Positions 1,216 to 39,344 of a stretch of 64,000 nucleotides of DNA are shown here, piece by piece (position 1 is the stretch's first letter; every line of letters begins with the position of its first letter). The notes under the pieces were generated by a model, which worked only from the letters and a program-made list of their open reading frames with translations, made no database searches and was not told the origin of the DNA. The stretch comes from Escherichia phage 241, in the sequence record OR924452; one strand, given 5' to 3'. Both the position numbers and the translations under genes were made by a program.

Positions 1216-3156
1216 TTACCAATCCCAAAGAATACGACCTGCGTCAGTACGGTTGGACGGCTCCAGTTGTGAACTGTTGAAGTTGTTTGTCGTACTGACT
1301 TTCTTCGAGTTATCAACATTTTGTTGTACAGGCATTACCACACTGGCTGGTGGGTTGGCGTAGGAAGATTTAACTTCTTCAATGTTGTTAGCCGCTCTCC
1401 CCTGAACCGGATATGCCCCACCCAGAGTACCTCCCCCGATCCCAGCATATGCATCTTTCAATTGAGAAGTGCGATCTGTTACGTTCACAGCATCCGAAGA
1501 AACCCCAGAAGGCATTGGAGTCAGCGTGCTGATATCTGCATTAGGTTGTGCTGGCGATTGACTGTTCGGTGGTACAGAGGCATTCTCAGGAGCCTTATCG
1601 TCTTGGCTTATCAGCATAGACTGTCTTGCTTCCGCCATCTTATTCCTGGCCGCTTCACCACCCAACGCATCGGGGATAATGCTGACAAACTTATCCACGA
1701 TATCAAACATCGCATTGGTGATAGCATTCAACATGTTGAAGAAAGGTTTCTTCACGTTTTCTGCAAATCCTTTCTTCATGTCTTCAACGACTTTGTTTGC
1801 AGCCGCCATGCCGTCATCTATCAGGCCAGTTATTCCACCCGTTACCCAATCAACCAATTTTATCAATTGGCCTTGCAAGTTATCTGCAAGTTTACCAGGT
1901 ATTTCGGTCAGTGATGTACTCTTCCCAATACCCGCAAACAAATCGTTGGTGACCCAATCAACAATCGAGTTCAACCAACGCACGGGCGCTTCGGTCATTT
2001 TCAGCACTTGTTCACGGAACGCCTTTCCAAACCCAGCATTGTTCCATCCGAATATTTCAGCAACCCAATCAGCGAGATCCCCGAAACTACCGACCAGCTC
2101 TGTTATCCCTGCCTGAACCCGATCAACGATCGATACTTGCGCTTTACCAAGGATTTCTTTAGCATTAAAGAACCCTTTACCGAATTCAAATACAGATGTT
2201 ATTAATGCCAGAGGTCCAACTCGAAGCATCTTGGTTGCTGCTTTCAGGGGCGCAAGCAACCCGCCGATCCCAGCACCAAACCCCATGAATAATTTAATGA
2301 AGCCACCAACAAGTTTTAATGGGGACATCAGGAGTTTTAACGCGCCCAGTCCAAGGAGTGCCCCCAGCGCCGCGCCTAACCCAGAAGATTGACCATCTTG
2401 TTTAGGCTCAGACGGAGGGATAGAACCAGCCTCTGGATTGTTCTTGTTTTCTTTACCTTCTTCACCACGACGGAATTTCTCTTCTTCTCTATATTTTTGA
2501 TCACTTTCATAGATACGTGTCAGAGTATCATTAAGATCTTCGTTCATGTATCCCAATTTGTCATCAATGCTGTCGAGGCGGGTAACAGTTTCGTTACTGG
2601 CATCTTTATTGAAATCCAGCGTGTCCTTATGCGTTTGAAGCATTATGTCAGTCAGGTTTACGATCTCCCCTCCGACCAACGCCAGCTTATCCTTTAATCC
2701 ATCAAGGCGTTCAAGACTATCTTCGTTGGCCGCGCCCAATTGATCTGATATCATGTCAAGATATTCAACTGACATGTCGTCAACCGGACCATTCGCTGCT
2801 TCACCAAATTTTTCGATCTTGGTGGCGATACGCATCAGTTCTTCATTGCCGTCCTTTGTTAGACTGACGGTGTCTTTCATCCAAGTGCTGTAATCCCTTG
2901 TGAAAATGGGACTGACACGGACGAACCCACCAACAATATCATTCACCGATGGGAATTTAATTGGCGGTACTTTCTGCTCCTGATTAGACGCCTGTCGTGT
3001 CTTCAGAGATTGCAGTTGTTTGTTGACATCGGCGAGCTGTTTATTCGTCTCGGATTGGGCGCGCAATTGCTTGCGCTCCATCATTTCTTTTTTGATTTTA
3101 TCCAAAACCTTGACGATGTCTTGCTGCCCTGGTGTCGGTTGATTGTTATCTGCCAT
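1216..3156 (-). CDS. tail tape-measure-like protein (T4 gp29-like), 646 aa
   Basis: N-terminal coiled-coil, central Gly/Ala/Leu-rich hydrophobic segment (GLGAALGALLGLGAL...), typical of tape measure proteins; sits in a baseplate/tail block. Confidence 0.45.
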   Translation of the reverse strand: MADNNQPTPGQQDIVKVLDKIKKEMMERKQLRAQSETNKQLADVNKQLQSLKTRQASNQEQKVPPIKFPSVNDIVGGFVRVSPIFTRDYSTWMKDTVSLTKDGNEELMRIATKIEKFGEAANGPVDDMSVEYLDMISDQLGAANEDSLERLDGLKDKLALVGGEIVNLTDIMLQTHKDTLDFNKDASNETVTRLDSIDDKLGYMNEDLNDTLTRIYESDQKYREEEKFRRGEEGKENKNNPEAGSIPPSEPKQDGQSSGLGAALGALLGLGALKLLMSPLKLVGGFIKLFMGFGAGIGGLLAPLKAATKMLRVGPLALITSVFEFGKGFFNAKEILGKAQVSIVDRVQAGITELVGSFGDLADWVAEIFGWNNAGFGKAFREQVLKMTEAPVRWLNSIVDWVTNDLFAGIGKSTSLTEIPGKLADNLQGQLIKLVDWVTGGITGLIDDGMAAANKVVEDMKKGFAENVKKPFFNMLNAITNAMFDIVDKFVSIIPDALGGEAARNKMAEARQSMLISQDDKAPENASVPPNSQSPAQPNADISTLTPMPSGVSSDAVNVTDRTSQLKDAYAGIGGGTLGGAYPVQGRAANNIEEVKSSYANPPASVVMPVQQNVDNSKKVSTTNNFNSSQLEPSNRTDAGRILWDW

Positions 3157-3166
3157 TTGTCACCTC

Positions 3167-4555
3167 TCAGACCTTCTGGGCTTGTCCTTTCTCTATTGGC
3201 GTCGGGGTTGGTGTAGAAGCCACAGTTTGACCAGTCTGAGGTGGTAAGACCTTCTGGATCATACTATCTTTGGCAATCTCAGCGACGCATTGATAATCAT
3301 TTGTCAGGCGTGAAATCTTGTGGCGTATCTTTGTGACGATATAATGGCCTGTTGATAACTTACTTAACTCGGCAATGTTTTCATTAGATTTCGGGCGGTT
3401 CGACAAATCTTCAATATAATAAACCTGCCCAACATTTAGACGGTTATCCCCCACGACCAGCAAACGCATAACCGTTGATGCGAGGCTGAATTCTATAACG
3501 CGTCGTGCGTAATCTATTTGTTCGGCACCATCCGGTTGCGCTTCAATGTACCTAACGTTCTCGCGGTCGAATTGATCAGAGAACAAAGGGAACGGATCAA
3601 GGTGAGCAGTGCTGTCAAACCATTCTGAATAAATGCGTTGGGTCGCTGTCGTGGATTTTGTACTAAAGTCATACACGCGCTCGTTCACTGCCAAGATATC
3701 CCGATAATTCGCCATGTACTGATCACGCGCCAGTTTCTTTTCAGCCTTGATGATCGTCCGCATAAAACGTTCGGAGTTGAAGTTGTTGTCTTGCATCAAC
3801 GGGGCATCTTGAGGATCACGGAAGAATTTCTTTTCCGCGCTTGCCTCTTGTTTCTCTTCAGCAGTCATGGACTGATTGCCCTGGTTGAACAATGTCGTCA
3901 TGCTCTTGAAGTGATAGCCTGTGAAGTCTTCATAGAAAACAAATGGCATAAACAATTCGTCGTATGCGCGGCTGGCCATATAATCGATGGAACGGAGTAC
4001 AGGCCAAAGAGGAGTTGCGAATCGTTCTTGCACACCATACGACGGATCTATGTCTTCAAATTTGGTTCGAGAATTTAACTGCTCAAAAATCTTGGCCGCC
4101 ATTTCTGAATAAGAACCGCTCAGACCGATAGACTTACGCAGCATGCTGTCACGGTACGCATCTGTTGTCACCAAGTGCAGCCAAAATGCTTTTTTAGATG
4201 ATGAATTGGATTCATCCGCAACTCTGCCCACCCGACTCACGCGCAATGAGAGAGTAGTGTAATCAGAAGCCGCTGGTGATTTGAATGACACCACTACTTC
4301 TTCACCGCCAAGTATCGGCATTGTGTCCAATATATCCCAACCTTCTTTTATCAAGATATTGGCTGTCAGTGAAGGAGAAGCATTACCTTCCAAACCAAGA
4401 TCTTGGTAGACGTTGAATTCTTGAAATAAAGAAGACAGGTCATATGGTCTTGGCGTACCACCTTCTGGAGTATGTGGTAGGATCGCCATATACTTCAAAT
4501 CAAATGTGGTGGACGGTGTTAAAATACCGTCTTGAGATTCTTTATTTTCGATCAT
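3167..4555 (-). CDS. virion structural protein, possible baseplate hub component (462 aa)
   Basis: Operon position between tape-measure-like and tail-tube-like genes; no motif verified. Confidence 0.35.
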   Translation of the reverse strand: MIENKESQDGILTPSTTFDLKYMAILPHTPEGGTPRPYDLSSLFQEFNVYQDLGLEGNASPSLTANILIKEGWDILDTMPILGGEEVVVSFKSPAASDYTTLSLRVSRVGRVADESNSSSKKAFWLHLVTTDAYRDSMLRKSIGLSGSYSEMAAKIFEQLNSRTKFEDIDPSYGVQERFATPLWPVLRSIDYMASRAYDELFMPFVFYEDFTGYHFKSMTTLFNQGNQSMTAEEKQEASAEKKFFRDPQDAPLMQDNNFNSERFMRTIIKAEKKLARDQYMANYRDILAVNERVYDFSTKSTTATQRIYSEWFDSTAHLDPFPLFSDQFDRENVRYIEAQPDGAEQIDYARRVIEFSLASTVMRLLVVGDNRLNVGQVYYIEDLSNRPKSNENIAELSKLSTGHYIVTKIRHKISRLTNDYQCVAEIAKDSMIQKVLPPQTGQTVASTPTPTPIEKGQAQKV

Positions 4556-5109
4556 TTGGTCAGCTCCTGTTCCAGCTGATTAACAAAGGAAGAAACATAA
4601 TCTGGATCGAGCACTTGGATGTTACGTTTGGCTTCGTTTTTGTTTATTGCATCATCGTGATATGTAATGCCAGTCAGCCCGTAATTCGCGATGATTGTCG
4701 CGTCGTCCATAGCGCCAAGGCCATATGCCAAACGGATAGCGCGGGGATCTGTTTCATTCCCAAATTCGTCAACGTAGTATTTTACGTCCCACATCCCATC
4801 GAGACCATAACGAGCAGTTAGCTCTTCAATGATTCTGCGTTCTGGTTTTGGCCAGTCTTCTGTGATATCCATGATACCATTGATAAGACATGGTATCCAG
4901 AACAACTCGAAGGAACCATAGACCCGTTCCGCAAAAGACCTTGGGGTTTCCCCATCGAAAACAGTATAAGGCAGGAGAAGCCCTTCTATGTCCCGAATTT
5001 TCTTAACAACCATAACCCGTCGTGTCAAGTTTTGCAACAGGACTTGGTCATTTTCTTTGACACCAATTAGTTGATGCCATACGAGTGGAAATTTCTCAAA
5101 ATATTTCAT
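4552..5109 (-). CDS. hypothetical structural protein (185 aa)
   Basis: 4-nt overlap with downstream gene indicates same operon. Confidence 0.35.
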   Translation of the reverse strand: MKYFEKFPLVWHQLIGVKENDQVLLQNLTRRVMVVKKIRDIEGLLLPYTVFDGETPRSFAERVYGSFELFWIPCLINGIMDITEDWPKPERRIIEELTARYGLDGMWDVKYYVDEFGNETDPRAIRLAYGLGAMDDATIIANYGLTGITYHDDAINKNEAKRNIQVLDPDYVSSFVNQLEQELTK

Positions 5110-5121
5110 GGCATCTTCCCC

Positions 5122-6090
5122 TTAGAAGCTGTCGCCTTCGGTATCAAAGCGGCCTTTGTGCAACGGTTCCAGTTCAATAAATGTCATGTCAATCTGGGTT
5201 GACACGATGCTATCATCTTTGTGGACAGCATATGAAGAATCCGGCGTCTCGTTGACAAACATGTTTGACAAAACACAAGTCGATATTCGATGTAACCATT
5301 TATTGCGTTCCCCCTGCACCATGAACGTGATGTCAAATGTGGAAGGGTGTAGGTAGAATGCACTGGAATTCTTGTTGTATTTGTATTCGGGGTACATATG
5401 CATCTTGAACAGACGAATGATTTCCCTCACCATTTTCGCCTCTTTTTGAGATCGAGGAGTGAATTTAAAGGTGAATGGAATTTCGCGATTGCGCACCCCT
5501 TGGAATATCATTTCTACATATGGGTTTGTCATTGTGCCCGTGAACAACTCTAATGTATCGTGAGCATTAATTGTTGGTAAGAATGGAATTGCTTCCGAAG
5601 CAGATTGAATCGCCTTTGTGGCAGCAAATCGCCCCATTTCTTTTCCCACGTTTAATGCATCGCCAAGTTTGAATTGGCTCATATCTTGGGCAGCGCGGGA
5701 TAAGAATTGGGCACCCATACCAGCTAATCCTAGCTCAGAGCCGTTCCAACCAACGCCATAGTTGGTTGTAATAGATTCAGGCATGCATAACACTATGGAC
5801 TCGTTAGAGCGGACATGACGCGCCCAAGCATATTTGCTGATAGAACCTGATTTAGAACCATAAACCACAGGAGTTTTTCCCAGTGGGTTTTGAATAGGGT
5901 TCTCAACGGTTTGAGTCGTTGTGTCGCCGTATGACGATCCTGATATGCGGTTAATATTGAATAAAACATAATGACCGAGGGTTTTACCCCCCGTTATATC
6001 CAACGGATAGACCAATTGCTTCTGAGACTTGGCCAAGCCTTTTGTGTTCAGAACTTTGATCTTATCGATGGTCGACTTGAAATTCGCCAT
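5122..6090 (-). CDS. baseplate/tail-tube-associated protein (T4 gp48/gp54-sized), 322 aa
   Basis: First gene of minus-strand structural operon; CTAAATA late-promoter-like motif ~37 nt upstream; divergent from gp4-like gene as in T4. Confidence 0.4.
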   Translation of the reverse strand: MANFKSTIDKIKVLNTKGLAKSQKQLVYPLDITGGKTLGHYVLFNINRISGSSYGDTTTQTVENPIQNPLGKTPVVYGSKSGSISKYAWARHVRSNESIVLCMPESITTNYGVGWNGSELGLAGMGAQFLSRAAQDMSQFKLGDALNVGKEMGRFAATKAIQSASEAIPFLPTINAHDTLELFTGTMTNPYVEMIFQGVRNREIPFTFKFTPRSQKEAKMVREIIRLFKMHMYPEYKYNKNSSAFYLHPSTFDITFMVQGERNKWLHRISTCVLSNMFVNETPDSSYAVHKDDSIVSTQIDMTFIELEPLHKGRFDTEGDSF

Positions 6091-6126
6091 GGTCTGAAGC
6101 CCTTAATTAGAATAGAGTAATGACAC

Positions 6127-6133
6127 TATTTAG
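6127..6133 (-). promoter_or_regulatory. late-promoter-like CTAAATA motif (minus strand)
   Basis: One-mismatch variant of T4 late consensus TATAAATA, positioned upstream of ATG at 6090. Confidence 0.3.
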
Positions 6134-6142
6134 GACTAGAAT

Positions 6143-6763
6143 ATGGCTATGTATTTGCAGGGGAAGTATGTTCCCGTAAATCCCAAGAAATATAAAGGCG
6201 ATGTGAACAAAATAGTTTTTCGTTCATCACTAGAACTTGTCGCCTTCAAATTCTGTGATATGAATCCTGCTATTGTTTATTGGTCATCCGAAGAAACCGT
6301 AATCCCATATATCTCTCCAGTTGATGGTCGCGCCCACCGCTATTTTATGGATTTGAAAGTATGGACTCGTCGACAAGACTCTGAAGAGTTACAGATAACC
6401 CTTATTGAAATAAAACCCAAAGACCAAATTAAAGAACCCCGAAAAACAAAAACAATGAAGGAATCAACGTTCAATAATTCGATGCGTACATGGCTGGTGA
6501 ACCAAGCGAAGTGGACCGCCACCAAAGAGCATTGTGCTAAAGTTGGTTGGAAATTCATTATTTGGACGGAAGAGCATTTGGTACCAGGAGAAGATCCTGA
6601 AGTTAAAAAACAATTTGCGCTACGTTCTAAGAAAAAGCGCGAGGTCGAAATGGAAGATCGACGCCGCGCTCAAAGAATTAATGCGTTGAAAGAGCAGATG
6701 AAAAAGGAAACTTCCAACAAACAAACGACAAACCCTGAAGATGACGGTTTGTTGTTACCCTGA
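6143..6763 (+). CDS. 4: head completion protein (T4 gp4-like)
   Basis: N-terminal ~100 aa align with T4 gp4 pattern (GKYVPxNxxKYxGD...IVYWSSEETVIPY...RYFMD). Confidence 0.6.
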   Translation: MAMYLQGKYVPVNPKKYKGDVNKIVFRSSLELVAFKFCDMNPAIVYWSSEETVIPYISPVDGRAHRYFMDLKVWTRRQDSEELQITLIEIKPKDQIKEPRKTKTMKESTFNNSMRTWLVNQAKWTATKEHCAKVGWKFIIWTEEHLVPGEDPEVKKQFALRSKKKREVEMEDRRRAQRINALKEQMKKETSNKQTTNPEDDGLLLP

Positions 6764-28428: not shown

Positions 28429-28430
28429 AA

Positions 28431-28476
28431 AAAAGAGGATAGAGCAATAATACCCTATCCCCCTTTATTGAAGAAC
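28431..28476 (-). terminator. rho-independent terminator preceded by conserved CGTTCTTCAATAAAGGGG motif
   Basis: Hairpin GGATAG...CTATCC then UCUUUUUU on minus strand, directly after stop at 28479. Confidence 0.45.
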
Positions 28477-31221: not shown

Positions 31222-31240
31222 GATGTATTTCCTTGTAAAA

Positions 31241-31290
31241 GAAAGGGGAACGGGCTAATAATAACCCATTCCCCTTTATTGAAGAACGCA
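31241..31290 (-). terminator. rho-independent terminator preceded by conserved CGTTCTTCAATAAAGGGG motif
   Basis: Hairpin AAAGGGGAA...TTCCCCTTT then CUUUU; second copy of the 28431 element. Confidence 0.4.
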
Positions 31291-31302: not shown

Positions 31303-31470
31303 TTACTTTTTCTTCAGCTCTTCCAGCTTGGCTTCAATTTGGTCCAGGATTTCTTTACCTTTCTGGACGATGGCTTCACCGTCTTGCGCGTGTTTACGAA
31401 AAACCAGAGCGCCAGCAATGAAACCAACAACCACGCCTGGGAGCGCATACACCAACAGATCTTGTAACAT
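31303..31470 (-). CDS. small membrane protein (55 aa), absent from supplied ORF track
   Basis: Translated by hand: MLQDLLVYALPGVVVGFIAGALVFRKHAQDGEAIVQKGKEILDQIEAKLEELKKK; GAGGA SD 9 nt upstream. Confidence 0.35.
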   Translation of the reverse strand: MLQDLLVYALPGVVVGFIAGALVFRKHAQDGEAIVQKGKEILDQIEAKLEELKKK

Positions 31471-31508: not shown

Positions 31509-32744
31509 TCATCGTTTCAACAAAGACATGAGGTTTACACTGGTCGACTTCGGATTGTCCTCTATCTTCCGGACGGGCATTTTCAGATTAGTGTAAACCT
31601 CAGATGGTTCCCAACGCGTACCCTGCTGCAGGTGCCATATATGTAGAGGAACACCCGTCTCAAAGAACACAGGCATCTTCCACTTCTGGACGCCAGGAAC
31701 GTGCCCTGCAGGAGCTTTTTCGCATAACAGGGTATCTGGTAGCCAGAGGGAACGGGCTTCCCATAATGCCTTACAGGAGTACTCAGGCCAGATGCGTTCC
31801 ATGTAGTCGATCTCATCCCAAGTACGCTCGGCATCCCACCCGATGTAACGAGTGTTTTTCAGACGGAAGAATTTCTTAAGCCAACAAGCGCCGGAAGTCT
31901 CAAAGTTCAAACGATTGATGAACGTGATGTGACCAAACTCGGCGACACAATCTTTGAATGCCTGTTCAAGATCAGCCTCAAGGATGTCGCATTCTTCATC
32001 GGTGATAGGACAGCCGTTGATCTTTTTCTTTCCGTGCTTGGTCACCCAGTCGTCACGGTTTGACAAGAATGCCGCGCCGTTGCGGTTGGACTCACTACCA
32101 TCACGGTCACGCAACATGAACCCAGGGACGTCGATCTGATACATGTTGCCGAATACCATGTTCAGGGCTTCCAGGAAGTTCCAGGCGCTCAGGCGACCGA
32201 AGTATTTCCACCCCATAGCCGTGTCCCATAGCTTAACGAATTGATCACTTTGCAGTTTAGTCTCCAACAACGGACGGAAAGCATCCATCTGAGTACGACC
32301 AGCCAGCCAATCAATGTAGGACTGAACACACGGGATCATCTTCGATTTGCGATAGCGGCAATCTGTATCGAATCGCATACGATCGAAGTTCAGGTTATAC
32401 CAATCACAGAATCGCTTGAACTCTTGTGGTGACTGAGGCGGTACAGGAAACTCACTATAAATCGTCCATGGGCCAATCCCATTATAACAACAGCCCCAAA
32501 GGAACGCCATCCAGATCTTGCGCTCGATCTTCTCAAGCTGCGTAATGCCTTCAGTGACTTCAATCGCATAATCCATCAGACGAACTTGTTGGTTGTGTTC
32601 TTCCGTATACGACAGCGCCTCCACCCATGCTTTGAGCAGATACATCCGATTCTCTGGCTTACGATAATCGATTGACAAATCAATTGGGTACTTCCATTCA
32701 GCCGGAGGCGTATAACCTGTCGGCATTTTAGATAGATGCGTCAT
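31509..32744 (-). CDS. hypothetical protein (411 aa); candidate DNA-base-modification enzyme
   Basis: Large Trp/Cys-rich ORF adjacent to P-loop kinase; no motif I can verify. Confidence 0.45.
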   Translation of the reverse strand: MTHLSKMPTGYTPPAEWKYPIDLSIDYRKPENRMYLLKAWVEALSYTEEHNQQVRLMDYAIEVTEGITQLEKIERKIWMAFLWGCCYNGIGPWTIYSEFPVPPQSPQEFKRFCDWYNLNFDRMRFDTDCRYRKSKMIPCVQSYIDWLAGRTQMDAFRPLLETKLQSDQFVKLWDTAMGWKYFGRLSAWNFLEALNMVFGNMYQIDVPGFMLRDRDGSESNRNGAAFLSNRDDWVTKHGKKKINGCPITDEECDILEADLEQAFKDCVAEFGHITFINRLNFETSGACWLKKFFRLKNTRYIGWDAERTWDEIDYMERIWPEYSCKALWEARSLWLPDTLLCEKAPAGHVPGVQKWKMPVFFETGVPLHIWHLQQGTRWEPSEVYTNLKMPVRKIEDNPKSTSVNLMSLLKR

Positions 32745-33102
32745 CCTTCACCTCGGCTTCGAGTTGGATATCTTCAGGGTTTAAAACGGGCTGGCCCAAA
32801 GACCAAATTGGAAGGAACCGACGGTCATTGGATACTACCCAGATTTGCTTGGCGGTTTTCGTTTTTTCAGAAATATAATGCTGGGCATTAACCTGAGTCC
32901 GTGCCAGCCCAATTTGCCGCCATGCACCGAAATCTTTAGAAGATGGATTGGTGTTCAGCTGGAATTGGGGAATGATTTTATTCTGTTCCGGATAATATCG
33001 GACAGCGTTAATCATATTGGCATCGCCACGATAGTCAACAGCAATAGCAATGGCATTGCGTGGAATAAGAATTTTCATTTTAATTCCTTTTGAAACTTTC
33101 AA
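32728..33102 (-). CDS. hypothetical protein (124 aa)
   Basis: ORF. Confidence 0.35.
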   Translation of the reverse strand: MKVSKGIKMKILIPRNAIAIAVDYRGDANMINAVRYYPEQNKIIPQFQLNTNPSSKDFGAWRQIGLARTQVNAQHYISEKTKTAKQIWVVSNDRRFLPIWSLGQPVLNPEDIQLEAEVKDDASI

Positions 33103-33283
33103 TTATGTTGTAAACGAACGGCGTTAATAAAGCAACACCGCCCGAATAATATAACGCGTAAACATTCAATATTTCGGTTGAGTCTAATTCAACGATGCCC
33201 AAATATTTCATAACACCGACAAGCATAGCTGAAAAGCACATCACCAGACCGACGAACACAAAATATTTAGACATCTTTTTCAT
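33080..33283 (-). CDS. small membrane protein (67 aa)
   Basis: Two hydrophobic helices. Confidence 0.35.
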   Translation of the reverse strand: MKKMSKYFVFVGLVMCFSAMLVGVMKYLGIVELDSTEILNVYALYYSGGVALLTPFVYNIIESFKRN

Positions 33284-33286
33284 TAT

Positions 33287-34201
33287 CTACACCTTACGCA
33301 TTAGCCCCAGAAGGGACACGGATGAGGTCTTTGGTTCTTCCTTGGCGACGGCCTTGTTTTTAGTTTTGGATGCCTTCTGCGGCTTCTCAGGCACTCTGTG
33401 AGCCAAAGGATCCTGACCGCCGACTTCACGCGTCATCGGATTGGTTTCGCAATAGCCGTAGAAATCTTTCGACATCAGATTGTTAGCGCGGCAAACTGTG
33501 CCAAGCTGATGATAGATAGCATTACCCACCACCCACAACGGGGCGTCGAACGGCAACATAGCCAATTCGCTATCATTCCCAGTCTTGAATTCTTGGGTGT
33601 TCGTAACCGTTTGGTGGTACAAAACGTCTTGCCCACTGTAATCATCCACGGCAACATTCCAGCCCAGCGCCAGCATTTCAGATTTCGACTTCTCGAACTC
33701 CTTGGAGTAAGATTCGTTGCGTGACCAGCCGGAATCCCCCGCTTCTTTACCAGAGCGTCCACGGATGCGGGCATCGTACTGATAGCGATCAGGATATGCA
33801 AAGTACAGCAGCGCCAAAGAATCAATCGGATAGTTCTTGAACATCCATTCAGGACGCCACTTGTCCGACAGCATCAGGGGTTCGCCCTCACACACCAGGG
33901 TATATCCCTGAGCCAGCCAACCCTTGACGAGGTCGCGAGCAATATCCCCAGAGCCTGTGGCAGCATGAATGGCGTCCATAGAGGTCCAAGACGCCAGGCC
34001 GGATTTATTGGACACTGTGTATTGGCCGACGAAGATTAACTTCAGCTCTTCAAATTTCAGGCCGAAGGGGCGCGTCTTATCCCCAACAGTGTACGACAAT
34101 TCAGTCGGCTTCAGCTTAGTGCGGAGCCACTCGATGAACTGTACGACACGAGTGCCTTTACCCGTGCCGCTGGTTCCTTTGATTACAATGATCTTTGCCA
34201 T
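33287..34201 (-). CDS. P-loop kinase (candidate 5-hydroxymethyl-dU DNA kinase)
   Basis: Walker A motif GTSGTGKGT at N-terminus; specific substrate is inference. Confidence 0.5.
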   Translation of the reverse strand: MAKIIVIKGTSGTGKGTRVVQFIEWLRTKLKPTELSYTVGDKTRPFGLKFEELKLIFVGQYTVSNKSGLASWTSMDAIHAATGSGDIARDLVKGWLAQGYTLVCEGEPLMLSDKWRPEWMFKNYPIDSLALLYFAYPDRYQYDARIRGRSGKEAGDSGWSRNESYSKEFEKSKSEMLALGWNVAVDDYSGQDVLYHQTVTNTQEFKTGNDSELAMLPFDAPLWVVGNAIYHQLGTVCRANNLMSKDFYGYCETNPMTREVGGQDPLAHRVPEKPQKASKTKNKAVAKEEPKTSSVSLLGLMRKV

Positions 34202-34506
34202 TATGCAGCATCCTCAATGCGCCAACTCACTCCACCCAACCAAGGTGCCCAAAACACGGCAACTTGCGGATGACCATTCTCAACAAACTTCACTTTATAC
34301 TGGTCATCAAAGTTATAGAAAATTTCGTCGTCATCAGGTGCCATACCGTTTTCGATCAGAACTCGTTTTAATTCCAACGCTGCGCCAACGGAAGTTGGTG
34401 GATTCTGATTACGGATGAAGTTGTTTACATGGATAATGATACCATCCATATCACTGTCACCGGAACGCTTGTCAGGGCTTTCTACAACTTTATTTTGTTC
34501 TTGCAC
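34201..34506 (-). CDS. hypothetical protein (101 aa)
   Basis: ORF. Confidence 0.35.
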   Translation of the reverse strand: MQEQNKVVESPDKRSGDSDMDGIIIHVNNFIRNQNPPTSVGAALELKRVLIENGMAPDDDEIFYNFDDQYKVKFVENGHPQVAVFWAPWLGGVSWRIEDAA

Positions 34507-34515
34507 GATGTGCTC

Positions 34516-35358
34516 CTATCGGACATATTGATAATGAGAAACCAGGCGATTCACCACTTCATCGAGGTTACGATTCAAGAAGTCAAAGTGGTTTTGGCCT
34601 TCTACATGCTTAATATAAAGCATATCCTCGCAATTCGAAAGATCCAGTTTTTCATAATTGCCCTGAGGGACGAAGATGACGAAGATGTTATTCAGGGCAC
34701 ACGGCTCAACATACTTCGGATTGTCGTCGATCAGGACATCGCCAGCAAGCAGATGCTTTTCATCCGTGCTCACGAACCCATTAATCAACGATTCAAAGTG
34801 ATGGTATATGAACTGACGCTTGCTGCGTTCGTGTTCCGGTTCGCATTTTGTAACTGCCACCATTTCCACTTGCTCAAACTTCTGAAGGAGAGCGGCCTTT
34901 AAATTCGTAAGGAATTCAACAGCCCCTGGCAGTGGTGACATTCTGGAATACAGATCAGGCATACGCCACCAATCCATCGGATCACGTCCTGTTGGCGAAT
35001 CCATCCACTGACCAGCAACGAATACACGGCGCGTTAACCAGGCCGGATGCGCGCGTTCACGCATGAGGATCGCCAGATCACCAGCGTGTGACATATAACA
35101 CTCTTTGGTGATTGGTTGAAATTCAGATGGGTAGTCGTGACATCCCATATTTTCCGCAGCGGCTTTAGAATTAGAAATATTGAACCATTCAACCCACGGC
35201 GATAGGGAATCAACCAGAGTCAAATCCACATCCACCAGAACGCGATATAACCCGCCAATTTTAGAACATGCGTCATACACACCAACGTGATTATTCATCA
35301 GATTTCTCCACATTGTCATAACCCGTTGCGGTGCATTGTTCTTCGGTGCAATCGGCAT
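34516..35358 (-). CDS. HAD-superfamily phosphatase, possible 5'(3')-deoxyribonucleotidase
   Basis: HAD motif I VDVDLT and motif IV GDVLIDD. Confidence 0.45.
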   Translation of the reverse strand: MPIAPKNNAPQRVMTMWRNLMNNHVGVYDACSKIGGLYRVLVDVDLTLVDSLSPWVEWFNISNSKAAAENMGCHDYPSEFQPITKECYMSHAGDLAILMRERAHPAWLTRRVFVAGQWMDSPTGRDPMDWWRMPDLYSRMSPLPGAVEFLTNLKAALLQKFEQVEMVAVTKCEPEHERSKRQFIYHHFESLINGFVSTDEKHLLAGDVLIDDNPKYVEPCALNNIFVIFVPQGNYEKLDLSNCEDMLYIKHVEGQNHFDFLNRNLDEVVNRLVSHYQYVR

Positions 35359-35635
35359 ACAGAACCACAGAAGATTCCTTCACGTAAGTGGTGCAGTGAT
35401 AGGTTTCATCTTCCTGGATGGAATCATCATAATTGCAAACAGTTTGCAACGGACCAGGAGTCGTGTTGTCCAAAGCTGCATGTGCCTTGATGGTGTCTTC
35501 CATCTTATTCACCGCTTGCTGATTGGTGAACGTCGGCGCATCGAGGTCAACAGTAGACGCAACGTCCAGAAGGGTAGAGCATGCAGTGGTAGAGAAAGCC
35601 AGAGCACACACCAGAAGAATCTTATTGAGTTTCAT
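35291..35635 (-). CDS. putative lipoprotein (signal peptide with lipobox-like Cys)
   Basis: MKLNKILLVCALAFSTTAC N-terminus; start set at ATG 35635. Confidence 0.35.
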   Translation of the reverse strand: MKLNKILLVCALAFSTTACSTLLDVASTVDLDAPTFTNQQAVNKMEDTIKAHAALDNTTPGPLQTVCNYDDSIQEDETYHCTTYVKESSVVLYADCTEEQCTATGYDNVEKSDE

Positions 35636-35695
35636 AACAATACCTGTTGTCAAAGGGATAACAGGGGGAATTATATCCCCCTTTGTTTTATTGAA

Positions 35696-38692
35696 TCAAC
35701 CTTTCTTGCCCATCATGGACAACAGATTAACTCGACGTTTGTGAGACCAACCAACCACGTCTAGAATAGACTGAATCGGCTCTATGAAGGTCTTTTCAAA
35801 CGTGGTGTGGTAATCTACCCACTTATCCAGCCCCAACTCCGGAGGGAGGAAGTCAGGGAAGGCTATGCGGTCGTTCCCCACAGGGTTCCCAGGTTTCAGG
35901 TTAATGATTTTAACCTTATCGCCAGATTCTATCGGCGGGAGACCGAGGTCTTCATGCTTGTCTATCAGCTTGTTGTACATAATACAAGCCTTGGCAGCAA
36001 AGTGTGTGCCACTGATATAATTTCCGTTGCCGTCTAACCACTTCTCAATATCACTAACGCCAGAGGCTTGAGCAATATCATCCACGGTTAATTCCATATA
36101 TTCCTTCTTATAACCCGCGATCAATTCCTGAACTTCAGCCTCCGTCCCCAGAAGAACTTTCTCATAGCATTTAACCAGACGCTCACGACACCATTCCGGC
36201 GTTGTAGATTTACGCGCTTCCAGACCTTTGAATTTTATCTTTGGCTTCTCATACTTGATGCCTTCGCTATCGTATACCGCCATGCAATACATCTTCTTGG
36301 CTCGCCATACAGCAGACGATGCGATGACCTCACGTTCCCAGACCATGCGCTGCTCAAACCCGTTCATGGTATTACATAACAACTGCGCCCATTCGCTGGT
36401 TTTTGGCTGGTAATTCTCTTTGATCCATTGGTCAATGTTATCAACGAGTTTGTGATGGTCCTTTTCTTCAGGCCACAATTGCTTGACCAGGCGTTCAATG
36501 CAAATGTAGTTGGAGTCAGTATCACCCGCGATAACAAAATCCTGACCAGTAGTGCCGCAAAGTTTGTTCAGATAATCATCGGTGTGGCGTTTGTTCCATT
36601 TGTTGATCAGCTGGCCGGAAGTGGTGATTGCTTCAGCGATGTTGATGTTGAAGTATTCTTTAAACCAGACGTTGGAGATTGCGCCATAACCTGCGTTCAT
36701 CAAGATCTTCAGACCTTGTTGTAACGTGTCTTGAGCAACCCCCAGATCTTCCCACTTGTGCATGACTTCAGTCAGGTGATCAAGATCGATGTGCTTGTGT
36801 TCTTCATACCATTCAGGATCGTAGAAACGAGACTTCATGGCGGACTCAAGGTGGAAATCACCTTTAGACATTTCCTTACACCAACCAGCCCATTGCTCAT
36901 ACTTCAGGCCAGTTGCTTTCTCTCCTTTACGGTCAGCGTATATGCCTCGCATAATTTCGGAAAGGAAGGACATCTTCTCATTACTGAAGAACTGAACGTT
37001 CGGGGTAAACGAAACGTTATATCGGCGTAGTGTTTCAAAATGGAATTCGCCCAGCGCGACCAATTCATCAACAACTTGTATGCGTTCATCAATAGCACGC
37101 TGCAACTTGTCGTGAAGATTTTTGAGATGACGACGTTTATTCATCGGCGTTGTCATATCATTCATCGCTTTGGTCAATTCCTCACACATAGCCTCAATAA
37201 TATCACGGCGTGTGTGCTTATCAGAAACGATAGTCTCTGGACCAAGGTTGTATTGCTGTATGATGTGGGGATACAGGGAGTTTAAGTCCTCAGAGAAGAC
37301 CCAGAAATATATCCCTGGTGCAACCTCCATGACATATGCGCCTTCAAAATCTGTTGGTCCATCATAGACGCGCTGGATTTTCGGGACAATCCCCTTCTCA
37401 TAAAGACGATAATAGCACATCGCCAGCCACGGTGCTACAGTGCCGAGACCGTCTTCATAGTTGGATTTAGTGCGATAAGCCAATACAAACATCAGCTGTA
37501 TCAAACGCAGTTTTTGTTCTAAGCGCCACACCAGCTTGACGTCTTTGATACCATATCGCGTATGCTTGCAATAATCATTGAAATAAAGGTCATACAATGA
37601 TTTGCTTTCACTATAATCCAACTTCTTCTCACCGAGTTCACAATAAGCGATCCAGTCCAGTGAGTATTTTTCGCGGGTGGTGTAAGTGTGTTTCTTGTAC
37701 ACTTGCATGTAGTCCATCATTGGACAACCCACAAACTGATAAGACGTGACGTCGCCTTTACGGTCTTTGATGAAACGTTTCTTCAGTTTACCCCAAGGAC
37801 TGAGACGCTGGGCTTCGGATTCACCAAGAACCTGCGTAATTCGTTCAACCAAATAGGGACTATCGAACGTTTCAATGTTCCACCCCGTCCAACCGTCAAA
37901 TTGACGCTGCGACCAGTAGTTAAGGAATGAACGCAACAGATCCTGCTCGGTGACGAACTCCATATACTCAACCTGAAGCCCACCGATTTCAGGATCGTTC
38001 TCATCATACCTGAACTTCGCGCGATCCTTGGAACACGGCATGCCCCAGACATAGAATTTATTGGTATTCATATCTTGGAGCTGTATCAGCGTAATAGGGA
38101 ACGCCGCATTCATGTTCTGTGTGATTTTACCGTTACTGTCAATTATAGGGAATTGGTCAGTCACGTTGTTGGAAATAAAGGAACCAGGGAAATGCTCCCG
38201 AACGAAATCATGGTTGGCCAGTACTTGCTTATGGAAACGACGAACCCGCGCCTCGCTGCCTTTAAACGTGTGAGATTCAATCGTTGCGTGCGGGAATGGA
38301 CCTTTAGTCATTTCTCCGTCACGCCAACCAGCCGAGAACACTTCGATATCCACGTTGGCGATGTGGATATTTGAATAATCAGGTGTGATCATCCCAGGAA
38401 AACTATGGGCGATGAATTGATATGCATAATCCGTTTGTCCATACACCGCAGCCCCTTCGACCTCCTTGTACTCCTCAAGATAGTTGTCAGCGTCGCGCAT
38501 TGATGCAAACTTTTTAGACACCAACGGTTCGTTGAGGAGGCCAATCTTTTCAACTTTGGAATAATCAGCTGTGGGTAAATACAAGGTGGGTTCGAATTTC
38601 TTACGCAACATGCGGCGATTGCCGTTGTCGTCTGCGATACGAATCAGAAGGTCGTTACCCTGTCGGGCAACGTTCGTATAGAAAACAGTCAT
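35696..38692 (-). CDS. 43: DNA polymerase, family B (T4 gp43-like)
   Basis: N-terminus MTVFYTNVARQG parallels T4 gp43; B-family pol and exonuclease motifs (e.g. YGDTDS); start set at ATG 38692 with GGAG SD. Confidence 0.85.
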   Translation of the reverse strand: MTVFYTNVARQGNDLLIRIADDNGNRRMLRKKFEPTLYLPTADYSKVEKIGLLNEPLVSKKFASMRDADNYLEEYKEVEGAAVYGQTDYAYQFIAHSFPGMITPDYSNIHIANVDIEVFSAGWRDGEMTKGPFPHATIESHTFKGSEARVRRFHKQVLANHDFVREHFPGSFISNNVTDQFPIIDSNGKITQNMNAAFPITLIQLQDMNTNKFYVWGMPCSKDRAKFRYDENDPEIGGLQVEYMEFVTEQDLLRSFLNYWSQRQFDGWTGWNIETFDSPYLVERITQVLGESEAQRLSPWGKLKKRFIKDRKGDVTSYQFVGCPMMDYMQVYKKHTYTTREKYSLDWIAYCELGEKKLDYSESKSLYDLYFNDYCKHTRYGIKDVKLVWRLEQKLRLIQLMFVLAYRTKSNYEDGLGTVAPWLAMCYYRLYEKGIVPKIQRVYDGPTDFEGAYVMEVAPGIYFWVFSEDLNSLYPHIIQQYNLGPETIVSDKHTRRDIIEAMCEELTKAMNDMTTPMNKRRHLKNLHDKLQRAIDERIQVVDELVALGEFHFETLRRYNVSFTPNVQFFSNEKMSFLSEIMRGIYADRKGEKATGLKYEQWAGWCKEMSKGDFHLESAMKSRFYDPEWYEEHKHIDLDHLTEVMHKWEDLGVAQDTLQQGLKILMNAGYGAISNVWFKEYFNINIAEAITTSGQLINKWNKRHTDDYLNKLCGTTGQDFVIAGDTDSNYICIERLVKQLWPEEKDHHKLVDNIDQWIKENYQPKTSEWAQLLCNTMNGFEQRMVWEREVIASSAVWRAKKMYCMAVYDSEGIKYEKPKIKFKGLEARKSTTPEWCRERLVKCYEKVLLGTEAEVQELIAGYKKEYMELTVDDIAQASGVSDIEKWLDGNGNYISGTHFAAKACIMYNKLIDKHEDLGLPPIESGDKVKIINLKPGNPVGNDRIAFPDFLPPELGLDKWVDYHTTFEKTFIEPIQSILDVVGWSHKRRVNLLSMMGKKG

Positions 38693-38699
38693 TGTTTGT

Positions 38700-38740
38700 C
38701 TCCGGTTAACCGTGCCGTCAGCACGTCCCCGTAATTTAAC
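38700..38740 (-). promoter_or_regulatory. 5' leader hairpins (CGUGC-ugacg-GCACG and palindrome CGGUUAACCG) next to polymerase SD; candidate translational operator
   Basis: Hairpin lies just 5' of SD in polymerase leader, analogous to the T4 gene 43 autoregulatory operator. Confidence 0.3.
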
Positions 38741-38771
38741 CGAGGAACGTTCAATGACCAAGGAGTTTAAA

Positions 38772-39344
38772 ATGGCAATCCCCTTTGTGAGCATGATTCC
38801 AGGGGCGCTAAAGCAACTCTGGAATCTTGGGACTGATTTGGTGCAATATAAGCGGGAAATTGTTCAGGCTAAACACGATGTTAAACTGGAGGCAATAAAG
38901 TCTTCTTCAGAATGGGAACTTTCTAAGATTACCGAAGTCGGCGGATCTTGGAAAGATGAATTCTGGACAATCGTTTTGGCTGTTCCCGCTATCCTTGTTA
39001 TGATCGCTCCGGTTGTGGAACTTCTAATGTTCCCCACCGAGTATCATAAAGGGGATTTCATCAAAGCAGTAATTGATGGTATGCAAGCCCTTGAAACAGC
39101 GCCTGATTGGTATACTGCTTCGCTATTGACAGCAATTAGTGCATCATTCGGTATCAAGGGGTACAACCATTACAAAAGCAATAGCCGGAAGGCGCAAGCT
39201 GTGGATGCTCTCAAACAGTTTGGGGTCAAAGTGGTTAACAAAGATCCCACTGTTGTTACTCAGTCGGGTTCTCCCGATCTTGAGTCTGCTCCCCCAGCTG
39301 GGTCTACTGCGACCTCTGGTGCGTGGCCTGATCTGAAGAAATAA
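38772..39344 (+). CDS. membrane protein (190 aa)
   Basis: AAGGAG SD 7 nt before ATG 38772; central transmembrane helix. Confidence 0.4.
   Translation: MAIPFVSMIPGALKQLWNLGTDLVQYKREIVQAKHDVKLEAIKSSSEWELSKITEVGGSWKDEFWTIVLAVPAILVMIAPVVELLMFPTEYHKGDFIKAVIDGMQALETAPDWYTASLLTAISASFGIKGYNHYKSNSRKAQAVDALKQFGVKVVNKDPTVVTQSGSPDLESAPPAGSTATSGAWPDLKK

Follow-up and report, generated by a model that had tools for sequence, protein, structure and literature searches.

DUF7292, a conserved predicted envelope lipoprotein encoded beside the DNA polymerase gene of Kuttervirus and related phages

The lipoprotein gene and its product

The window considered here is a stretch of 64,000 nucleotides from Escherichia phage 241 (sequence record OR924452), and its minus strand carries at 35291-35635 a small gene that encodes a member of the protein family DUF7292. 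The initial annotation had proposed an open reading frame (ORF) for a lipoprotein at these positions, directly downstream of the DNA polymerase gene, and both statements are borne out: the ORF runs on the minus strand from an ATG at 35635-35633 to a TAA at 35293-35291, and it starts 60 nt beyond the stop codon of a family-B (gp43-like) DNA polymerase (a 1032-amino-acid ORF at 35696-38794; PF03104/PF00136, phrog_262). The predicted protein has 114 amino acids (MKLNKILLVCALAFSTTACSTLLDVASTVDLDAPTFTNQQAVNKMEDTIKAHAALDNTTPGPLQTVCNYDDSIQEDETYHCTTYVKESSVVLYADCTEEQCTATGYDNVEKSDE), with the N-terminus MKLNKILLVCALAFSTTAC followed by S. That the ORF is a conserved gene is supported by its Pfam match, its presence in 277 phage records, and its ratio of nonsynonymous to synonymous substitution rates (dN/dS). 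An alternative in-frame TTG at 35653 would add six residues, but the ATGAAA start is unchanged in seven genera-level relatives while the sequence 5′ of it varies, which argues that the coordinates first given are correct. The features of the coding sequence and its product are as follows.

35291..35635, minus strand: DUF7292 lipoprotein precursor coding sequence, including the stop codon (from the ORF and its translation, Pfam, PHROG, an extent equal to that of Marshall_19, and dN/dS)
35582..35635, minus strand: signal peptide, residues 1-18 (MKLNKILLVCALAFSTTA; from K2/K5, hydropathy, and an architecture kept in homologues)
35579..35590, minus strand: lipobox T-T-A-C, residues 16-19, with Cys19 predicted to be acylated and Ser at +2 (from a PROSITE PS51257-like rule and conservation)
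35528..35578, minus strand: predicted flexible tether, residues 20-36 (from low model confidence and variable length and sequence in alignments)
35306..35527, minus strand: acidic globular domain, residues 37-110 (from model confidence scores of 80-90, secondary structure assignment, and invariant Cys)

The protein matches Pfam DUF7292 (PF23964) over residues 1-113 with E = 1.6e-53 and 180 bits against a cut-off of 27, and phrog_3748 with E = 3.8e-64; both are families without an assigned function. Over the surrounding 2 kb, identity amounts to 99.7% with Escherichia phage Sa157lw and to 99.5% with Salmonella phage Vi01; 229 records match this region, mostly of Ackermannviridae, which places the window in Kuttervirus. 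The label lipoprotein, in some cases putative or conserved, already stands in the GenBank records of phages Marshall, Maynard, AR2819, Guerrero, May, phiDP23.1, barely, D5lw, and allotria, and the 'putative conserved lipoprotein' Marshall_19 has the same extent as the gene in the window. The GenBank record of LIMEstone1 notes for the orthologue (ORF183) 'putative signal peptide present', a call made with SignalP. The lipoprotein observation is therefore correct, yet as an annotation it was already public. A literature search on lipoproteins of CBA120 or Ackermannviridae found nothing about the DUF7292 gene among the titles and abstracts listed.

The N-terminus has the layout of a bacterial export signal, with a positive n-region (K2, K5), a hydrophobic h-region of nine residues (ILLVCALAF, Kyte-Doolittle peak 3.2), and no D, E, R or K among the six residues preceding the lipobox. 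The sequence S-T-T-A-C19 satisfies the PS51257-like rule, including the requirement that the Cys lie within positions 15-35; the strict box [LVI][ASTVI][GAS]C is failed, since position -3 is T. Among 617 ATG-initiated ORFs of at least 50 amino acids in the six frames of the window, the PS51257-like rule selects one, the lipoprotein gene; a looser scan of 2506 starts in the window gave additional matches that were all short or nested, and spurious.

Homologues were compared in alignments of 23 close and 16 diverse sequences, and all 31 family members were tabulated. Cys19 is invariant among the close homologues, and a lipobox Cys is present in 29 of the 31 members, where the +2 residue is always S or A and never D. 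Many of the homologues possess canonical lipoboxes (LSAC, LSGC, LTAC, LAGC, MSGC). The signal peptides of the 31 homologues fall into at least six unrelated sequence types in which the order of n-region, h-region and lipobox is constant, as would be expected if export itself were under selection. P0027 and P0028, the most distant of the members, have no lipobox Cys and carry signals of the signal-peptidase-I type (VSA/M and AFA/F), which implies that a periplasmic location is the conserved property. Two unrelated signal-peptide alleles, MKLNKILLVCALAFSTTAC and MKLKKDVLFHKIMQVFAVTTMAFSLSAC, are found on near-identical mature domains (P0004, P0008, P0009 and P0012 compared with the window protein), a pattern that indicates, as far as sequence comparison goes, recombinational swapping of the export signal.

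The initial annotation had also described a signal peptide with a lipobox-like Cys and had predicted an envelope lipoprotein. The first holds through the PS51257-like rule and the 29 homologues with the Cys, with the reservation that T at -3 misses the strict box; the second is very probable in view of an export signal that is kept despite sequence turnover, the GenBank labels, and the SignalP call for LIMEstone1. The protein is thus, with high confidence although predicted from sequence, exported and lipid-modified. Sorting of lipoproteins by the Lol system follows the '+2 Asp' rule, whereby a residue other than Asp at +2 directs the protein to the outer membrane. With S or A and never D at this position, sorting of DUF7292 to the outer membrane is predicted.

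The structure of the protein was predicted with AlphaFold2 from a 23-sequence alignment, and secondary structure was assigned by DSSP. The predicted local distance difference test score (pLDDT) is about 50 or lower up to residue 30 and averages 75 for residues 31-40. The domain that follows consists of a helix (residues 38-55) and four antiparallel strands (63-70, 78-85, 90-96 and 101-108). Four cysteines, Cys67, Cys81, Cys96 and Cys101, are invariant in all 31 members, and the strand boundaries of the model set C67 opposite C81 and C96 opposite C101. This cross-strand register makes two intramolecular disulfides geometrically natural, and C67-C81 and C96-C101 bonds are probably made by DsbA if the model is correct. 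The window protein has a net charge of -15 and an isoelectric point (pI) of 4.05, and acidity is common to all 31 mature proteins (net charge -7 to -16, pI 4.05-4.54). A state in which the protein is disulfide-bonded, held in the outer membrane, and facing the periplasm is likely, if less assured than export and lipidation.

Comparison with the Agtrevirus, Limestonevirus and Taipeivirus orthologues gives dN/dS values of 0.08-0.11. The mature domain is 92% identical between the window and Ag3 (Agtrevirus) and 88% identical between the window and LIMEstone1 (Limestonevirus); the corresponding figures are 85% and 81% for the polymerase C-terminus, and 79% and 76% for the NT5C-like protein encoded next to DUF7292. 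In Taipeivirus the mature domain is just 62-63% identical and the polymerase 82-84%; in Serratia and Erwinia phages the mature domain is 45-47% identical.

Searches for relatives outside the family were negative. A Foldseek comparison of the AlphaFold2 model with the PDB found nothing significant, the best match being SAUGI at E = 0.21, followed by PepSY-like and monellin-like folds, and in BFVD the sole match was a member of DUF7292 itself. A profile search of PDB sequences gave no match for the lipoprotein, nor did NCBIfam and PADLOC. At E <= 0.1 Pfam and PHROG contained nothing beyond DUF7292 and phrog_3748, hence no Llp, Cor, Bor or spanin family.

Distribution, gene neighbourhood and expression

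The gene was detected by tblastn in 277 phage records from Kuttervirus, Agtrevirus, Limestonevirus, Taipeivirus, Miltonvirus and Nezavisimistyvirus, a number about equal to the 278 records with a polymerase C-terminus at least 60% identical to that of the window; it is retained near-universally in the enterobacterial (ViI-like) Ackermannviridae. An exhaustive hidden Markov model search of 1.84 billion representative proteins added only six further clusters, so the DUF7292 family is narrow. Kuttervirus-type copies of the gene also appear in OR844942 (Enterococcus phage Efm 3-10, 85% identical) and MN871475 (Pseudomonas phage Pa-sanjiao); the host labels of these two records are probably wrong, or the sequences contaminants.

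In all genera examined the polymerase gene is followed by DUF7292, in some cases by an additional one or two small ORFs, and then by the NT5C-like gene, DUF7254, and the 5-hmdU DNA kinase gene in this order. Scans of viral, metagenome and genome collections for the loci of P0027 and P0028 gave no confirmed locus; the gene contexts of the two, which lie on metagenomic contigs, were recovered by exact look-up. The contigs with these non-lipidated homologues have the same order, and an amino-acid:DNA transferase gene comes after the kinase. Vibrio phage 144E46.1 (Ackermannviridae; polymerase 47% identical; 6082-6146) has the polymerase gene followed by a hairpin, immediately after it the NT5C-like gene and, further on, the HMUD2 kinase, without a DUF7292 gene. 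As this phage keeps the NT5C-like and kinase genes in the absence of DUF7292, hypermodification does not need DUF7292, and the gene is an accessory insertion. Around the gene in the window the following features can be recognized.

35670..35699, minus strand: sigma-70-like promoter, TTGATT-18 nt-TATAAT, the best match (10/12) in the 31-40 kb region, with predicted activity
35663..35682, no strand assigned: conserved GC hairpin AGGGGGA / TCCCCCT whose loop contains the -10 hexamer, an inverted repeat that is terminator-like on the plus strand
35643..35647, minus strand: Shine-Dalgarno-like ACAGG, 7 nt 5′ of the ATG (from the sequence; a ribosome-binding site is annotated in Marshall)
35291..35298, minus strand: 8-nt overlap (ATGAATAA) of the lipoprotein stop and the NT5C-like start (from the sequence; the same in Marshall_18/Marshall_19)
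34516-35298, minus strand: NT5C-like gene (Pfam/PHROG)
34201-34506, minus strand: DUF7254 (Pfam/PHROG)
33287-34201, minus strand: 5-hmdU DNA kinase HMUD2 (E = 2e-168)
33080-33283, minus strand: 67-amino-acid membrane protein (phrog_4514), with a clear transmembrane segment at about residues 7-25 and a weaker second hydrophobic stretch
31509-32744, minus strand: amino-acid:DNA transferase ADDT (E = 5e-58)
31303-31470, minus strand: 55-amino-acid membrane protein (phrog_3879) with an N-terminal transmembrane segment
31303..35635, minus strand: inferred eight-gene transcription unit with the lipoprotein gene first (from Pfam/PHROG, tight or overlapping spacing, and flanking motifs)
35663-35699, ~31240-31283 and ~28430-28472, minus strand: copies of a TTCAATAAA-hairpin motif (from motif comparison)

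After the lipoprotein gene the presumed unit comprises the genes for the NT5C-like protein, DUF7254, HMUD2, the 67-amino-acid membrane protein, a 124-amino-acid protein, ADDT, and the 55-amino-acid membrane protein, and the thymidine-hypermodification cluster spans 31509-34506 on the minus strand. A GGAG lies just 5′ of the NT5C-like ATG, and the 8-nt overlap, to judge from the sequence, implies co-transcription of the lipoprotein gene with the NT5C-like gene and possibly translational coupling.

The -35 hexamer of the putative promoter overlaps the polymerase stop codon, and neither hexamer differs between Kuttervirus, Limestonevirus, Agtrevirus and Klebsiella phage KN2-1. The hairpin is annotated as a terminator in OR122688. 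In the relatives from Serratia, Erwinia, Vibrio and metagenomes a stem of altered sequence is kept, and the loop or its vicinity again contains a -10-like hexamer. On the sense strand no good T-run follows the hairpin, so read-through from the polymerase gene is likely. The AGGT at the ribosome-binding site is shared by Kuttervirus, Limestonevirus, Agtrevirus, Taipeivirus and Serratia 3M, but Erwinia Bue1 lacks it. A 5′ untranslated hairpin that sequesters this site was considered and rejected: inverted repeats exist, but the hairpin is absent from the cross-genus consensus fold, and the single-sequence fold (z = -1.8) is not unusually stable. Neither a T4-type late TATAAATA nor a MotA-box is present upstream of the lipoprotein gene, and a literature search for Kuttervirus transcript data found none. 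That the gene is expressed together with early genes, as the initial annotation had it, or with middle genes is plausible and may reasonably be inferred from these promoter motifs and from its overlap with the next gene within the nucleotide- and DNA-modification unit.

The promoter and hairpin form part of a composite motif, consisting of TTCAATAAA and a GC-rich hairpin with an AT-rich loop that contains a -10-like hexamer (TATAAT/TATTAT), of which there are three minus-strand copies. In two of the three a T-run, a ribosome-binding site and an ATG come after the hairpin. The copy at ~31283 is an annotated terminator in Marshall, and the eight-gene unit is bracketed by this copy and the one at the polymerase end. 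The element looks like a coupled terminator-promoter that brackets transcription units; promoter-terminator coupling has been described for comparison (bioRxiv 10.64898/2026.08.19.745784).

The longest ORF of the polymerase gene (ATG at 38794) exceeds the 2997-nt gene annotated in Marshall by 34 codons, and its 5′ end (38692-38794, minus strand) overlaps a divergent ORF at 38712-39344 on the plus strand; the downstream start is probably the true one.

Among the Sajous1 virion proteins identified by mass spectrometry, those quoted in the available portion of the source (PMC10892097) do not include the orthologue gp108, and the main text and tables of the LIMEstone1 paper, its table of structural proteins included, contain no mention of '183' (ORF183; PMC3296691). 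The lipoprotein is best regarded as an accessory protein that is produced during infection and is not part of the virion.

Possible functions of DUF7292

The best guess, and a tentative one, is that DUF7292 acts in superinfection exclusion or envelope protection by way of a conserved periplasmic target. Under such a model the gene would be transcribed from the sigma-70-like promoter after the polymerase gene, by read-through from the polymerase gene, or both. The precursor would be exported by Sec, receive a diacylglyceryl group on Cys19 from Lgt, be cut by signal peptidase II (LspA) and be N-acylated by Lnt, and the Lol pathway would then deliver it to the outer membrane's inner leaflet. From this leaflet a tether of some 17 residues would hold the domain, compact, very acidic and about 75 residues in size, in the periplasm. 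The infected cell would thereby be altered such that later phages would be unable to inject productively or to lyse it from without, an exclusion logic that would be nearer to that of T4 Sp and Imm than to the masking of a specific variable receptor by Llp.

The kind of target is suggested by the pattern of conservation. Among Salmonella, Shigella and Dickeya phages, which have different tailspike receptors, conservation of the mature domain exceeds that of the polymerase, and this makes a variable primary receptor an unlikely target. Taken together, strong purifying selection, near-universal retention, conservation above that of the polymerase, a lipid anchor that is dispensable in two lineages, and the lack of linkage to a receptor-binding protein gene point to action on a conserved target at the periplasmic face or on a conserved part of the incoming phage. 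The 67- and 55-amino-acid membrane proteins could, by analogy with Imm, serve as inner-membrane partners of the lipoprotein. The 67-amino-acid protein was also considered as a homologue of T4 Imm, and BLASTP returned no alignment.

Several observations weigh against this interpretation. No homology or fold similarity to characterised exclusion proteins was found with Pfam, PHROG, PDB, BFVD or hhalign, and a literature search for DUF7292, PF23964 and phrog_3748 found no paper. Thr is uncommon at -3 of lipoboxes, which bears on the efficiency of processing, and the loss of the lipid anchor in two lineages does not suit a mechanism that strictly needs tethering to the outer membrane. The receptors documented for Ackermannviridae in the literature are only O-antigen, lipopolysaccharide or capsule, so there is no protein receptor as an obvious target. 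In the genera examined no tailspike, receptor-binding or lysis gene lies beside the lipoprotein gene, whereas llp, cor and the gene for the Rtp exclusion factor adjoin receptor-binding genes of their phages. Finally, the parallel with T4 Imm.1, set out below, is positional and compositional, not evolutionary.

Of the other explanations, the one that survives best is that the protein is a periplasmic inhibitor or decoy directed against a host enzyme or envelope defence, which would shield the infection under way and not keep other phages out; candidate targets would be a periplasmic nuclease, a protease, a peptidoglycan hydrolase or a stress sensor. A small and very acidic domain that is predicted to be stabilised by disulfides, with a net charge of -7 to -16 in all 31 proteins, would suit such a role, as would conservation across host genera if the target were a conserved host component, and a soluble periplasmic form in two lineages. 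The helix-on-sheet arrangement is like that of small inhibitor folds, and the weak top matches in the PDB included the DNA-mimic inhibitor SAUGI, a PepSY-type domain and monellin, all at non-significant E values of at least 0.2. However, no significant structure or sequence match to known inhibitors was obtained, PADLOC and NCBIfam gave no match, and no candidate target was identified, and on balance the inhibitor explanation is rather unlikely.

A role as an accessory to lysis or envelope integrity, affecting the timing of lysis, the action of spanins or endolysin, or the late stability of the outer membrane, is improbable. It draws on the fact that o-spanins are small outer-membrane lipoproteins and on the presence of lysis-inhibition genes of the rIIA/rIIB type in this phage group (PMC9409062). 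Yet an adjacent Rz-like/i-spanin pair is already encoded elsewhere in the Kuttervirus genome (PMC10892097), and the DUF7292 gene lies between the polymerase and nucleotide-metabolism genes without an overlapping membrane-spanning partner. The mature part is predicted to be globular with intramolecular Cys pairs, unlike Rz1, and the promoter is sigma-70-like with no T4-type late TATAAATA.

More doubtful still is a functional tie to the co-transcribed thymidine-hypermodification genes, for instance in anchoring or regulating that machinery at the envelope. The block from polymerase through DUF7292, the NT5C-like gene and DUF7254 to HMUD2 (and ADDT) is kept even in the most distant contigs that carry homologues, the lipoprotein gene overlaps the NT5C-like gene by 8 nt, and two more small membrane proteins are encoded in the unit. 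But the protein is exported while DNA modification is cytoplasmic, the Vibrio relative has the NT5C-like and HMUD2 genes without DUF7292, and gene order in this family is conserved throughout the genome (PMC3296691), so that synteny carries little weight.

The notion that the protein is not exported at all, its hydrophobic N-terminus being a membrane anchor or fortuitous and its four Cys binding metal in the cytoplasm, could appeal to the atypical Thr at lipobox -3 and to four invariant Cys that could in principle form a Cys4 metal site, but it is scarcely credible given that signal function is kept across unrelated sequences, type II signals are swapped for type I in two lineages, other members have canonical L-S-[AG]-C boxes, and the LIMEstone1 orthologue is SignalP-positive according to its record. 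The probability left after these readings belongs to something else.

A bolder version of the exclusion or protection model is that DUF7292 founds a new family, with a structure of its own, of periplasmic factors that exclude phages or protect the envelope. Their target would be either a conserved stage in the penetration of myoviruses, for example the one served by the tail-tip lysozyme or puncturing device, or a conserved host factor of the outer membrane or periplasm that DNA entry requires. This is speculative and rather improbable. If true, the binding partner would reveal an entry step of ViI-like phages that comes after the tailspike, and it would follow that, in phages of the Pantevenvirales, exclusion lipoproteins unrelated to one another have repeatedly come to occupy the position behind the polymerase gene.

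Kuttervirus phages and their relatives are widely used, or have been proposed, as biocontrol agents against Salmonella, E. coli O157, Dickeya and Klebsiella, and about half of their genes are without known function. A near-universal, strongly constrained envelope protein could decide mutual exclusion among the members of a phage cocktail, could shield progeny from inactivation on cell debris, and could point to the entry step that succeeds tailspike digestion of O-antigen or capsule. Should DUF7292 be merely an unremarkable accessory lipoprotein, its annotation is still tidied with respect to start codon, processing site, sorting signal, disulfides and operon position.

Comparison with known phage envelope proteins

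DUF7292 belongs among the small phage-encoded envelope lipoproteins, as a family without a characterised member or a significant structural match. Rz1 is a short proline-rich peptide. Like DUF7292, the o-spanins of the Rz1 type are small phage lipoproteins sorted to the outer membrane; the DUF7292 gene, in contrast, is neither paired with nor embedded in an i-spanin gene, and its product has a globular, acidic mature domain. From Lambda Bor/Iss the DUF7292 protein differs in that it has no Pfam Bor match (E <= 0.1).

T5 Llp resembles DUF7292 as a small outer-membrane lipoprotein of a virulent phage, DUF7292 being predicted to face the periplasm, to contain disulfides, and probably to be pre-late. 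Mature Llp has 61 amino acids with one Cys11-Cys58 bond, its gene adjoins the receptor-binding gene pb5, and this lytic conversion lipoprotein blocks FhuA (PMC9586334). Mature DUF7292, on the other hand, has 95 amino acids and two putative disulfides, is encoded in a replication and DNA-modification region, and is conserved across phages with different receptors (88-92% mature identity among Salmonella, Shigella and Dickeya phages); no Llp chain was among the listed PDB fold matches. The initial annotation had pointed to receptor masking of the Llp kind, which stands as an analogy only and is not upheld: there is no sequence or fold link to Llp or Cor, the gene is not beside a receptor-binding gene, conservation extends across hosts, and two homologues have no anchor.

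Cor (T1/phi80/N15) and the Rtp exclusion factor are likewise small envelope exclusion proteins that act on outer-membrane proteins. The Rtp factor binds the periplasmic face of LptD, and its gene adjoins the receptor-binding gene (bioRxiv 10.64898/2026.04.02.716166; abstract of PMC12685063). The genes for Cor and the Rtp factor lie by tail-tip or receptor-binding genes and track receptor specificity, whereas DUF7292 does neither and shares no family with them. By analogy, small periplasm-facing outer-membrane lipoproteins that exclude phages, such as Llp and the Rtp factor, may be regarded as precedents for an exclusion role of DUF7292.

The closest positional parallel is found in T4. Ackermannviridae and Straboviridae belong to the same order, Pantevenvirales, and in T4 (NC_000866) the gene order is 43, imm.1, imm, 42 (dCMP hydroxymethylase), where imm confers superinfection immunity. 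The imm.1 gene (4637-5014, minus strand; NP_049661, DUF5481), which is annotated as 'iduronate sulfatase', is directly 3′ of gene 43. By its N-terminus, MKIAILVIALGLAGC, which includes an LAGC lipobox, its product is a model case of a lipoprotein precursor, and the mature part contains four Cys. In Mosigvirus PhAPEC2 (2495-3530) the imm.1-imm pair adjoins spackle, an arrangement that suggests a place for Imm.1 among the exclusion genes of T-even phages; a literature search for 'imm.1' found nothing relevant. Imm.1 and DUF7292 thus share the same slot, 3′ of a gp43-type polymerase gene and 5′ of base-modification genes, and both are small lipoproteins with four mature Cys. Homology between the two was considered and rejected, as hhalign gave a probability of 12% over the signal peptide only, and Imm.1 is predicted to be all-alpha with four helices (single sequence, mean pLDDT 61) in contrast to the helix and four strands of DUF7292.

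T4 Spackle (Sp) is an early, exported, small periplasmic protein, helical and not lipidated, that targets the gp5 tail lysozyme and not a receptor. No sequence or fold relation between Spackle and DUF7292 was detected with Pfam, PHROG or Foldseek; by analogy, however, a target of this type, a conserved component, would suit both the cross-host conservation of DUF7292 and the occurrence of its soluble variants.

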